DNA of 34,478 nucleotides from a virus (lineage: Duplodnaviria > Caudoviricetes). A model generated the notes under the pieces. That model saw only the letters and a list, made by a program, of their open reading frames with translations, did no database searches and was not told where the DNA came from. Below, one piece after another: positions 4,364-33,458 of the stretch. Location: positions 1 to 34,478 of IMG/VR virus record IMGVR_UViG_3300035102_000153, one strand, 5' to 3'. The stretch's first letter is position 1. Every line of letters begins with the position of its first letter. A program made the position numbers and the translations under genes.

Positions 4364-4613
4364 GTCAACTACAACCCACGTCAAAGACGGAGACTTGAAG
4401 CCTCGGAGTTGACCAGCTTCAGCCAGAGCTGAAAAGCTATCGGGCTACGTTATTCTGGTTATGACACCTTGGAATGCTGGAGCCAGTTCCAAGCCCTGTC
4501 GTTCAACATTAAACAGGTTTACGGGGTTTAAAAACCAGTGTGTTGAGCGTAAAAAGCTAGAATAACATTAGCGAGGCTCACTTTAACCCGAAAGGGAGAG
4601 GGAGGTAACTTCC
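4364..4613 (+). ncRNA. omegaRNA (HEARO-like) scaffold of IscB
   Basis: GTCAACT (4364) pairs with AGTTGAC (4407); typical blocks CTACGTT, CTTGGAATGC..GTTCCAAG, TTAAACAG, AACATTAGCGAGG and a CCCGAAAGGG hairpin directly upstream of iscB. Confidence 0.85.
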
Positions 4614-5909
4614 ATGGAAAAGAAATTAGTACAACGAGTTTTTGTGTTAGATAAAAACAAGAAACCACTTATGCCCTGTCATCCTGCTAGGGCAAGAGAA
4701 TTATTAAAGAAAGGTAAAGCTGCTATATTTCGATATTATCCGTTCACTATTATTCTTAAAGAACGTGAAGGTGGTAATGTTCAACCTATGCAGGTTAAAA
4801 TCGATCCTGGAAGTAAATATACTGGAGTTGCTTTAGTAGCAGATTTTAAACGTGGTAAAAAAGTTGTTTGGGCTTCTGTGATTCAACACAGAGGGCATGT
4901 AATTAAGAAGGATTTAGATACCCGTAGGGCTGTAAGACGTTCTCGTAGAAACCGAAAGACAAGATACAGGCAACCGAGATTTTTAAATAGAAAGAGAAAG
5001 GAGGGTTGGTTACCACCTAGTCTCTTAAGTCGTGTAGATAACACTATTACATGGGTTAAACGTATTAGACACTTTGCACCAATTACAGGTATTTCAATGG
5101 AGTTAGTCCGTTTTGATACTCAGAAACTTGAGAACCCAGAGATCAAAGGTGTAGAGTATCAACGAGGAACATTGTATGGATATGAAGTAAAAGAGTATCT
5201 TCTTGAGAAATGGGGTAGAAAATGTGCGTATTGTGGTAAAGAAAATGTACCGTTAGAAATAGAACATATCATACCCAAATCTAAAGGAGGTTCAAACAGA
5301 GTATCAAATCTTACATTAGCTTGTCACGAATGCAATCAAAAGAAAAATAATCAATCTATCGATGAGTTCTTAGCTAATAACCCTAAAAAACTGAACCAAA
5401 TCAAGGCAATAGCAAAGAGCCCACTCAAAGATGCAGCAGCAGTAAACGCAACACGTTGGTATCTATTTAACCAGTTAAAGAAAGAAGGGTTATTTCTTGA
5501 AGTCGGAACAGGAGGGCGTACGAAGTACAATCGCGAAACACAAAATTATCCCAAGGAACATTGGATAGACGCAGCTTGTGTAGGGGAAAGTGGTTCTAAT
5601 GTTCAACTCGAACCTGATATGCAAGTCTTAGAAATTAAAGCAATGGGACATGGGATGCGTAGAATGTGTTCTGTAGATAAATATGGGTTCCCAAAGAGTT
5701 ATCGCCCAAAAGAACGAACATATATGGGGTACAAAACAGGAGACATGGTGTTGGCAAACGTACCAAAAGGGAAAAATAAAGGTATCCATATTGGGCGAAT
5801 TGTAATACGGCATAAGCCAAATTTCAAGGTGAATGATATTGATGGTATAAATCCAAAATATCTTACATTATTACAAAAAAATGACGGTTATGGGTACCAA
5901 ATATCTTAA
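4614..5909 (+). CDS. iscB: RNA-guided endonuclease IscB
   Basis: PLMP motif, RuvC-I IDPGSK, Arg-rich RRSRR bridge helix, RuvC-II ELVRFD, HNH (CAYC..EHIIP..NLTLAC..CN), RuvC-III HWIDA. Confidence 0.96.
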   Translation: MEKKLVQRVFVLDKNKKPLMPCHPARARELLKKGKAAIFRYYPFTIILKEREGGNVQPMQVKIDPGSKYTGVALVADFKRGKKVVWASVIQHRGHVIKKDLDTRRAVRRSRRNRKTRYRQPRFLNRKRKEGWLPPSLLSRVDNTITWVKRIRHFAPITGISMELVRFDTQKLENPEIKGVEYQRGTLYGYEVKEYLLEKWGRKCAYCGKENVPLEIEHIIPKSKGGSNRVSNLTLACHECNQKKNNQSIDEFLANNPKKLNQIKAIAKSPLKDAAAVNATRWYLFNQLKKEGLFLEVGTGGRTKYNRETQNYPKEHWIDAACVGESGSNVQLEPDMQVLEIKAMGHGMRRMCSVDKYGFPKSYRPKERTYMGYKTGDMVLANVPKGKNKGIHIGRIVIRHKPNFKVNDIDGINPKYLTLLQKNDGYGYQIS

Positions 5910-31849: not shown

Positions 31850-31915
31850 GTCTTAATAAAAAATAAACTAAAATGTTATATAAAACAAAATAAAATGTTG
31901 TATAATATATTTAGT

Positions 31916-31985
31916 TTAGCAAGGTGGTGAAGATGGCGGTTACTTCGGAGTAGGGAAAATACCGTCATCGGTTGTCCCCCGCTAA
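31916..31985 (+). ncRNA. Short Y RNA-like ncRNA
   Basis: TTAGC/GCTAA closing stem; GATGGCGGT/ACCGTCATC stem; shares GTTACTTCG and AAAATAC with the next RNA; TATAAT at 31901; upstream of Ro60. Confidence 0.7.
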
Positions 31986-31986
31986 C

Positions 31987-32125
31987 GGCCCGTTGGTGTA
32001 ATGAAGAGTTACTTCGCCTGTGGAGCGGGAGGTCGTGGGTTCAAGTCCCACCTGTATGCTTCGGCATGCAGTAGCTCAGTTGGTAGAGCGCCAAAATACT
32101 CTTCATGATGGTTCCACGGGCTTTT
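31987..32125 (+). ncRNA. yrlA: YrlA-like Y RNA with a circularly permuted tRNA-like domain
   Basis: GCCCGT/ACGGGC and ATGAAGAGT/ACTCTTCAT stems enclose an anticodon-like arm, T arm (GTGGG TTCAAGT CCCAC), UUCG-capped acceptor stem and D arm (GCTC AGTTGGTA GAGC); T tail; adjacent to Ro60. Confidence 0.88.
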
Positions 32126-32156: not shown

Positions 32157-33458
32157 ATGAAATTGAACACAAAGGAAAAAGCAAAAGTTACACATGAAGG
32201 TGCACCTGCAATGGAAATAGACGCTTGCCAAGAATTAAAACGTTCATTGATGGCATGCATGCTTTGGGAAGACACTTTTTACGAAAACGGCGTTGAAATT
32301 GCCCAAAGAATTGTAAGATTAGTAGGGCAAGTTAAACCAGAAGAAGCAAAGAATTTAGCAATTGAAGCCAGAGAACAAATGAAGTTAAGACATGCACCAT
32401 TGTGGGTAGCCAGGGCAATGGCACGGCTTCCAGAACATAGAAAATTAGTTGGTGAAACATTAGCAAAAATTATACAACGTCCAGATGAACTTACAGAATT
32501 TTTAGCAATTTATTGGAAGGACGGCAAAGAACCATTAGCTTCACAGGTGAAAAAAGGCTTAGCAAAAGCGTTTACAAAATTTGACGCCTACCAGTTGGCA
32601 AAATATAACAGGGATGGGCAAGTCAAACTAAGAGACGTTATGTTTTTAGTCCATCCAAAGCCTTTAAATACAAAACAAGAACAGACTTGGAAACAATTGG
32701 TAGATGGAACTTTGCCCGCACCAGACACTTGGGAAGTTGCGCTTTCTACTGGCAAGAACAAAAAAGAAACTTGGACACGTTTGTTATTAGAAAAGAAATT
32801 AGGATCACTTGCATTGCTAAGAAACTTAAGAAACATGAAAGAAGTCGGGGTTGATGCGTCACTTATAGCAGAATCAATTAAACAAATGAAAGTTGACAAA
32901 GTTTTGCCGTTTCGTTTTATTTCGGCAGCAAAGTACGCACCTGAATTCGCTGAAGAACTCGAAGCAGCTATGTTGAAAAATTTAGAACGTGAAAGAAAAT
33001 TGCGTGGCAAAACAATATTGTTGATTGACGTGTCAGCTTCAATGGAAGACACATTATCGGGAAGGTCAGAAATGACCAGAATGGATGCAGCGGCTTCGTT
33101 GGCTATTTTGGCTAGGGAACTATGCCGAGTAGAAATATATACGTTTTCAAACGACGTTGTAAAAGTTCCCGACACCAAAGGCTTCAAGCTTGTTGATGCT
33201 ATTTTGAACAGCCAGTACCATAGCGGAACGTATTTGGGGAAAGCCGTAGAAGAAATGAATTACAAAGAATACGACAGACTAATAGTTTTCACTGATGAAC
33301 AGTCCCACGACTATGTACCACAATCAAGAGGACGTGGTTATATGATCAACGTAGCTAACTATGAAAATGGTGTTGGCTATGGTGAATGGGTACACATCGA
33401 CGGCTTTTCTGAAAATATTCTAAAATATATTCAAGAATTGGAAAACTTCACATATTAA
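32157..33458 (+). CDS. rsr: Ro60/Rsr (TROVE plus vWA domain) RNA-binding protein
   Basis: THEGAPA, FDAYQLAKY, TWEVALS, ALLRNLRN, LPFRF; MIDAS DVSASM, GTYLG, FTDEQ. Confidence 0.93.
   Translation: MKLNTKEKAKVTHEGAPAMEIDACQELKRSLMACMLWEDTFYENGVEIAQRIVRLVGQVKPEEAKNLAIEAREQMKLRHAPLWVARAMARLPEHRKLVGETLAKIIQRPDELTEFLAIYWKDGKEPLASQVKKGLAKAFTKFDAYQLAKYNRDGQVKLRDVMFLVHPKPLNTKQEQTWKQLVDGTLPAPDTWEVALSTGKNKKETWTRLLLEKKLGSLALLRNLRNMKEVGVDASLIAESIKQMKVDKVLPFRFISAAKYAPEFAEELEAAMLKNLERERKLRGKTILLIDVSASMEDTLSGRSEMTRMDAAASLAILARELCRVEIYTFSNDVVKVPDTKGFKLVDAILNSQYHSGTYLGKAVEEMNYKEYDRLIVFTDEQSHDYVPQSRGRGYMINVANYENGVGYGEWVHIDGFSENILKYIQELENFTY

Follow-up and report, generated by a model that had tools for sequence, protein, structure and literature searches.

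The DNA analysed here (the window, 34,478 nt at its full length) is the 34.5-kb genome of a tailed phage, with genes for terminase, portal, capsid, tape measure, RecT and DnaB and with direct terminal repeats in its record, and metagenomes from oil fields and the subsurface contain its sequence. Two Y-like RNA genes, a short one and one of 136 nt, lie directly 5′ of rsr, the product of which reaches just 40-52% identity in its best matches to cultured-phage proteins (Table 1). The rsr start lies 35 nt 3′ of the end of the 136-nt RNA on the same strand, and hence within the ≤4 kb of a Ro60/TROVE gene that is expected for YrlA RNAs. The short RNA folds with a z of only -1.25 against shuffles and is kept in relatives with variants, its central hairpin being the most variable part among close relatives. 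A promoter scan of the window listed no site on the + strand, the TATAAT of Table 1 included, and the contigs of the one RNA run contained no evidence of a Y RNA transcript. At the gathering threshold, HEARO is the sole Rfam match in the whole window, and an ARAGORN tRNA search of the window returned 0 genes.

Table 1. Predicted features of the Y RNA and rsr locus, and the HEARO element, with the basis of each assignment.
Feature	Positions	Strand	Basis
HEARO RNA	4364-4586		137 bits
HNH endonuclease gene, following HEARO	4614-5909		
TATAAT, candidate -10 for both RNAs and rsr	31901-31906	+	seen by sequence; retained in L001, a near twin of the window
Short second Y-like RNA	31923-31983	+	sequence; stem design and GUUACUUC motif (31939) as in the long RNA, without the tRNA domain
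YrlA-type Y RNA gene (predicted ends), followed by a U-run	31987-32122	+	Rfam RF02553, 35.5 bits; fold z -3.2
5′ strand of long terminal stem (predicted Ro60-binding), partner 32097-32122	31987-32009	+	minimum free energy; compensatory 32009 T>A / 32098 A>T in relatives
Linker GUUACUU (Chen's YUAY), running into nt 29	32008-32014	+	7-mer before nt 29 in 98/171 homologs, a count partly forced by the search patterns
Anticodon stem-loop: nts 29-31, 32015-17; loop 32-38 CU-GUG-GA, 32018-24 (GUG anticodon 32020-22); nts 39-43, 32025-29	32015-32029	+	29:41 Watson-Crick in 154/171; loop statistics
Variable region AGGUC, 5 nt (A44, C48)	32030-32034	+	26:44 and Levitt 15:48 covariation in 171 homologs
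T arm	32035-32051	+	sequence, Rfam alignment; compensatory 32036/32050 and 32037/32049 in relatives
Sealed acceptor hairpin: 7 bp plus C73 (32059):G-1 (32064), UUCG loop	32052-32071	+	sequence, fold; C-G pair also in Asn-loop twin L001
U8-A9 and D arm (D arm itself 32074-89)	32072-32089	+	sequence, Rfam alignment
G26, C27, C28, finishing the anticodon stem in trans (C32091-G32029, C32092-G32028)	32090-32092	+	covariation in 171 homologs
rsr (Ro60/TROVE protein, 433 aa)	32157-33458	+	Pfam TROVE, E 5.6e-21, plus vWA; PHROG 850

The ends of the 136-nt RNA were deduced from its terminal stem. The Rfam YrlA model RF02553 matches positions 32005-32118 over the full model length (E 4.5e-6), with a score under its gathering score of 69; an anticodon hairpin is missing from the model, which aligns the 5′ part of the RNA wrongly. 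T arm, closed acceptor hairpin and D arm follow each other in the YrlA order with tRNA-invariant bases, and the YUAY linker reads UUAC (32009-12). The acceptor is closed by the UUCG loop and the RNA has no CCA end, so that a free 3′ CCA, a free 5′ G-1 and the standard gene order of a tRNA are all lacking. At the Ro-binding motif GNCGAAN0-1G the 5′ strand of the window reads GGUGUAAUG, with two mismatches; among homologs the strict form occurs in 12/171 and a relaxed form, GNYGNAR, in 80 compared with 28 when shuffled. On its predicted fold, the 136-nt RNA is a YrlA-type Y RNA, namely a permuted and sealed tRNA mimic which carries all four arms. A preliminary description of this DNA had proposed such a four-armed permuted mimic from the letters of the window, and the elements that it listed (loop, GUG, AGGUC, T arm, acceptor, UA, D arm and the missing CCA) are correct in sequence and coordinates.

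Homologs were collected by scans in which the hairpin was unconstrained, covering rsr neighbours (39 loci), a viral pattern (122 of ~1600 loci) and genomes (123 of ~4900 loci). Once 37 matches had been removed for containing a second whole tRNA, 32 for lacking the linker, 16 as duplicates and 8 for lying at edges, 188 YrlA cores remained. Stem covariation was assessed on 171 loop-bearing RNAs pooled from all scans, with pairs 30:40 and 31:39, which define the class, not counted as evidence. In a further scan, which fixed the stem but left each of the seven loop bases open, 58 loci were obtained, 55 of them distinct and five later found to be un-permuted. A TROVE gene lies ≤2.5 kb away in 26 of 27 loci tested with three Rsr queries, two of which were taken from these loci; with the window Rsr as the lone tblastn query, TROVE was found in 17/27.

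The preliminary description had placed the break of the permutation between the D and anticodon arms, with an anticodon stem formed in cis that included two G-U pairs (U32013 and U32014 with G32029 and G32028). The partners at these positions are Watson-Crick in 57 and 23 of the 171 homologs and do not covary. Nucleotides 28 and 42, by comparison, form Watson-Crick pairs in 166/171 (U-A 70, C-G 54, G-C 32, A-U 10) with a mutual information of 1.62 against a shuffle maximum of 0.12, while slid partners for nt 28 reach 27-60/171. The 27:43 pair is likewise Watson-Crick in 166/171, yet it is the weaker evidence, since nt 27 is mostly C and its slid partners reach values of up to 140/171. Five Watson-Crick pairs are formed by two trans and three cis pairs in 148/171 and by cis pairs alone in 3/171; in the window they are C27-G43, C28-G42, C29-G41, G30-C40 and C31-G39. 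By covariation, the predicted break falls within the anticodon stem, at 28/29, where the Ro stem is grafted and two stem pairs come from 3′ of the D arm. The neighbouring contacts agree with tRNA, with 26:44 being G-A in 76/171 and A-U in 38/171, and the Levitt pair 15:48 (G15:C48 in the window RNA) G-C in 119 and A-U in 45, a total of 164/171.

The same junction recurs in eight un-permuted relatives (L062, L154, L185, L200, L205, L212, L217, L256), whose parts stand in full tRNA order, interrupted by a Ro-type hairpin between nts 28 and 29, and in which 27:43 and 28:42 are Watson-Crick in 8/8. An NCCA end is present in 5/8 of them; L154 has G-1, C73, CCA and the loop CU-AUG-GA, and there are two Leu-loop copies and one Lys-loop copy with A73. 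The un-permuted relatives could be chargeable. A ninth un-permuted match, L203, was rejected as a tandem artefact. In L237, L247, L309, L322 and L343 the strand following the D arm supplies three to five anticodon-stem pairs, forming a continuum to the loop-less Salmonella type. Tandem YrlA units occur in single loci (L071, L074, L081, L087, L121, L124, L254), and the units usually differ in loop, or one has a loop and one does not.

Folding energies rank the structures differently from covariation. The whole Y RNA is more stable than its shuffles (z -3.2, 1/200 as good), and the 17-nt anticodon hairpin alone is no better than its own (z -0.4, 70/200). The ViennaRNA minimum, at -56.4 kcal/mol, is a rival fold in which the linker ACUUC pairs with GAGGU; the fold of the preliminary description has -51.4 and the corrected split-stem fold -48.9 kcal/mol, so that nearest-neighbour energy places the cis stem, which covariation rules out, above the corrected one. 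Anticodon-stem pair probabilities are 0-3% in ViennaRNA, a model that leaves tertiary contacts outside. The corrected fold lies 7.5 kcal/mol above the minimum; tertiary contacts or a protein would be required for it. In the rival, more stable predicted fold the conserved linker (32011-32015) can pair with 32029-32033 (G43-U47), and this linker/variable-region pairing could represent an off state.

The hairpin 5′ of the T arm follows tRNA rules across the homologs. Two closing pairs and a 7-nt loop which ends exactly 10 nt 5′ of the T arm, i.e., at the tRNA register, are present in 119/188 cores, and 69/188 have no loop at this register. U33 is found at the tRNA register in 109/119 loops, and U33 together with purine 37 in 106/119, against 0-19 at eight shifted registers. 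In the free-loop scan, U33 occurs in 54/55 and A38 in 50/55, U36 is accompanied by A37 in 31/31 and G36 by G37 in 19/20; the anticodon survey that had been proposed to tell random from non-random loops thus came out on the non-random side. Positions 36-38 read UAA, GG or AAA in 95/119 loops, compared with a mean of 60 and a maximum of 75 after shuffling. GG loops comprise 12 anticodons on 11 stem types, and over 30 anticodons are sampled in total. On a weak tree of 131 rows, the 36/37 coupling comprises 30 changes for 38 GG, with five supported independent pairs (sign test p 0.25). G36 is needed by TrmD, and U36 is accompanied by t6A37 in tRNA (PMC11199890). The U36-A37 and G36-G37 coupling in these RNAs is, as far as sequences can tell, the tRNA modification (TrmD/t6A) rule. 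With a 5-bp stem, a 7-nt loop, U33, purine 37 and the 36/37 coupling, the fourth hairpin is a predicted anticodon arm, in which U33, A38 and 36/37 are kept and 34/35 vary freely.

The use of these loops departs from that of real tRNAs. When kinship is ignored, G36 is followed by G37 in 25/31 YrlA loops compared with 54/99 real tRNAs of the same loci (p 0.011), and, again with kinship ignored, A34 outside ACG occurs in 8/109 loops compared with 7/448 real tRNAs of the same loci (p 0.003); this excess of A34 implies that decoding is seemingly relaxed while 36/37 are kept. N36 is U in 72, G in 31, A in 9 and C in 7 of the YrlA loops, compared with 128, 99, 106 and 115, respectively, in real tRNAs. 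A32 is also unusually common (20/119 loops and 3/448 real tRNAs), often alongside G36-G37. The differences bear on the explanation that the loop is a functionless, neutral relic of ancestral tRNA genes or was repeatedly captured from host tRNAs by recombination. A tRNA-dimer origin has been proposed for YrlA (10.1101/312249), a real phage tRNA-His (L167) carries the same CU-GUG-GA loop, and capture would bring the 36/37 coupling along. However, compensatory changes in the stem, U33 kept as counted above, stems common to different anticodons, the rarity of A34 loops in real tRNAs and the different N36 usage all speak against a relic, which we consider the least probable of the explanations weighed here.

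The literal tRNA-His features noted in the preliminary description, i.e., GUG, G37 and C73:G-1, are all present in the window, yet they are neither conserved nor linked to each other. The near twin L001, with 95% Rsr identity, has four differences in the RNA, namely positions 36 and 37 (giving GUU-AA) and two acceptor bases, and it retains C73:G-1. Related phage contigs have GUU-AA in 7/8 runs from 8 studies (8 of 20 listed runs were examined) with the same C-G closing pair, and 32022 and 32023 always change together among relatives. GUG-GA is also found in L357 and in one run, X7, which makes an assembly error at 32022-23 unlikely, although the two may have one source. L180, a more distant relative with a nearly identical acceptor, has the loop AUU-AA, so that GG is probably derived, and we infer that GUU-AA was recently replaced by GUG-GA. 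When all viral contigs were scanned specifically for GUG, 10 loci were obtained, and His accounts for only 6 of 109 loops, after Asn (18), Thr (17), Ser (14), Leu (8), Met (8) and Pro (7). In L001, YrlA and rsr are further separated by a tRNA-Glu(UUC) gene (L001:1749-1825) that is absent from the window, and runs X14 and X20 have a 91-nt insert at its position.

These relatives also bear on whether the RNA is a precursor of a chargeable tRNA-His-like molecule, the acceptor of which would be opened by RNase P, trimmed and provided with CCA, so that HisRS would engage G-1:C73 and GUG. In Mycobacterium smegmatis, RNase P cleaves the YrlA, whose acceptor has 7 bp, and CCA is added to it (PMC4201824). 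The window acceptor is built likewise of 7 bp plus C73/G-1, and the un-permuted relatives offer NCCA ends and, in L154, G-1 and C73 with an AUG loop. A weak association of nt 73 with the amino acid (p 0.012 from 2000 shuffles, one of three tests and uncorrected) also favors a precursor, and it is out of line with known identity rules. Against it, C73:G-1 is not enriched in His types (5/12 compared with 25/104 other RNAs, p 0.29), G73 is found in just 6/22 Asn types, and 1:72 and 2:71 have no association with the amino acid. C73:G-1 is older than the GUG loop and closes a stable UUCG loop, and a Ro stem inserted at 28/29 would probably be an obstacle to decoding. A chargeable precursor is hence very improbable, if marginally less so than a relic. 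The specific tRNA-His mimic, including the engagement of HisRS, is not supported in view of L001, the GUU-AA runs and the lack of a link between C73:G-1 and His, and His identity as an aminoacylation signal appears to be incidental.

The sealed acceptor and the free position 34 argue against decoding, while the kept U33, A38 and 36/37 suggest that a protein reads the loop as that of a mature tRNA. A decoy, or a ligand of modifying enzymes, fits the data best among the functions considered, and in its specific form the Y RNA, itself not chargeable, would bait host enzymes recognizing the anticodon loops of tRNAs or compete for them, a role to which we give an even chance. The RNA would be co-expressed with rsr and bound through its stem by the neighboring Ro60 protein, which would hold and stabilize it. 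G37 of the GUG-GA loop would be methylated by host TrmD, and the GUU-AA relatives would carry t6A37; with position 37 modified, the loop would resemble that of a mature tRNA, so that an anticodon nuclease may bind or cut the bait in place of the real tRNA, and the GUU-AA to GUG-GA switch would retarget it. YrlA has previously been proposed to be a competitive inhibitor (Hughes 2020, PMC7790460). PrrC prefers t6A37 (PMC13191261), and AriB cuts Lys, Thr, Asn and possibly His and Pro tRNAs, with competition by viral tRNAs being possible (PMC12409363); these targets overlap the commonest YrlA loop types. However, AriB is independent of tRNA modifications, which counts against a modified bait (PMC12409363), as does the fact that Salmonella YrlA functions without the loop. 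No nuclease or RtcB recurs as a neighbor among the 93 of 114 neighbor ORFs scanned. In bacterial chromosomes 39/74 cores carry the loop class, hence its role is not solely phage counter-defense.

The latter frequency equally suits the ordinary role of YrlA, in which the RNA links Rsr via the tRNA elbow to a partner in the decay or repair of RNA (PNPase, ligase) and the anticodon arm serves only for acceptance or stabilization by tRNA-binding or modifying proteins or the ribosome. Conservation is highest in the D and T arms, YrlA co-purifies with Rsr and PNPase (PMC4201824, 10.1101/312249), and a modification-driven 36/37 coupling fits a tether just as well, but it leaves unexplained the joint 36/37 switch between near-identical phages and the more than 30 anticodons, and the loop is lacking in many YrlA, hence we consider a mere tether rather doubtful. 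The loop could also be meant for cutting, the nicked RNA with its cyclic-phosphate end, held by Rsr, signaling a ribotoxin to a regulator or repair ligase. tRNA halves activate RtcR, which controls rsr-yrlBA-rtcBA (PMC7790460), and WYL genes adjoin 2/27 loci. Nonetheless, Salmonella YrlA is not a substrate, and rtcB, rtcR and WYL are absent among the window proteins scanned, a subset of the ORFs, making a damage sensor improbable.

Extending the bait to the family, most phage and many bacterial YrlA might mimic tRNA completely, with an anticodon loop that can be modified and exchanged and that has been misread as a variable arm. Ro60 RNPs would then constitute a programmable anti-ribotoxin system, in which the phage, by changing both 36 and 37 (from Asn/t6A to His/m1G here), redirects the bait to suit the anticodon nucleases of the host, and RNase P would perhaps open some members, yielding chargeable tRNAs tethered to Ro. 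This wider proposal is tentative, and doubt prevails somewhat over confidence. The role of the YrlA tRNA-like domain has been sought since 2014, and supposing that roughly six of every ten YrlA cores have an anticodon arm that obeys the rules of tRNA modification, a partner would read the anticodon loop. With two bases of difference in the loop, the window and L001 form a natural control pair, and the YrlA of M. smegmatis, which has been studied before, appears to be part of the anticodon-arm class, with the loop CU-UCU-AA in the Chen seed alignment by eye; the seed rows of M. smegmatis, Gordonia, Streptosporangium and phage ET08 fit, by eye, the 2+3 stem with a 7-nt loop.

YrlA has been described to mimic the D, T and acceptor arms, with its variable arm seen in a fourth hairpin that lies 5′ of the T arm and is less conserved (Chen 2014, PMC4201824), and as circularly permuted without an anticodon loop (Wang 2018, 10.1101/312249, whose structure is that of Salmonella YrlA). 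In the literature searched, in which reviews are partially covered and an earlier notice is possible, we found no description of an anticodon-bearing YrlA; in the accessible parts of a 2026 preprint on tRNA mimics YrlA is named once, and those of a jumbo-phage review note TROVE with a tRNA-like partner and nothing more. The permutation and the fourth hairpin are therefore already published, and what would be new is the predicted reading of the hairpin as an anticodon arm, which re-reads much of the YrlA family. The window RNA resembles published YrlA in adjoining rsr on the same strand, in its T arm 5′ of the D arm, sealed acceptor and YUAY linker, and further in its Levitt covariation, fourth hairpin 5′ of the T arm and nearby short Y-like RNA, but differs in that this hairpin is predicted to be an anticodon stem-loop, that the variable region is a distinct 5-nt stretch 3′ of it, and that the Ro stem is grafted at 28/29. 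Yrn1 of Deinococcus radiodurans is likewise a Y RNA modelled with a possible anticodon arm (PMC4201824), yet it has a 6-nt loop, the D arm before the T arm and no D modification, and belongs to a separate lineage (Chen 2014). Permuted algal and archaeal tRNA genes also have a closed acceptor loop and 5′ and 3′ ends that meet in the anticodon stem region, but the splicing endonuclease turns them into real tRNAs (Wang 2018), whereas the acceptor identity of the window RNA is independent of its anticodon and its terminal stem is a Ro60-type handle. Like the anti-nuclease tRNAs of phages, it is a phage-encoded tRNA shape from a class with variable anticodon loops, with a proposed place in the conflict with host tRNA nucleases (PMC10264068, PMC12409363); those tRNAs, however, are described as chargeable, cleavage-resistant replacements, while the sealed window RNA would act by competition.
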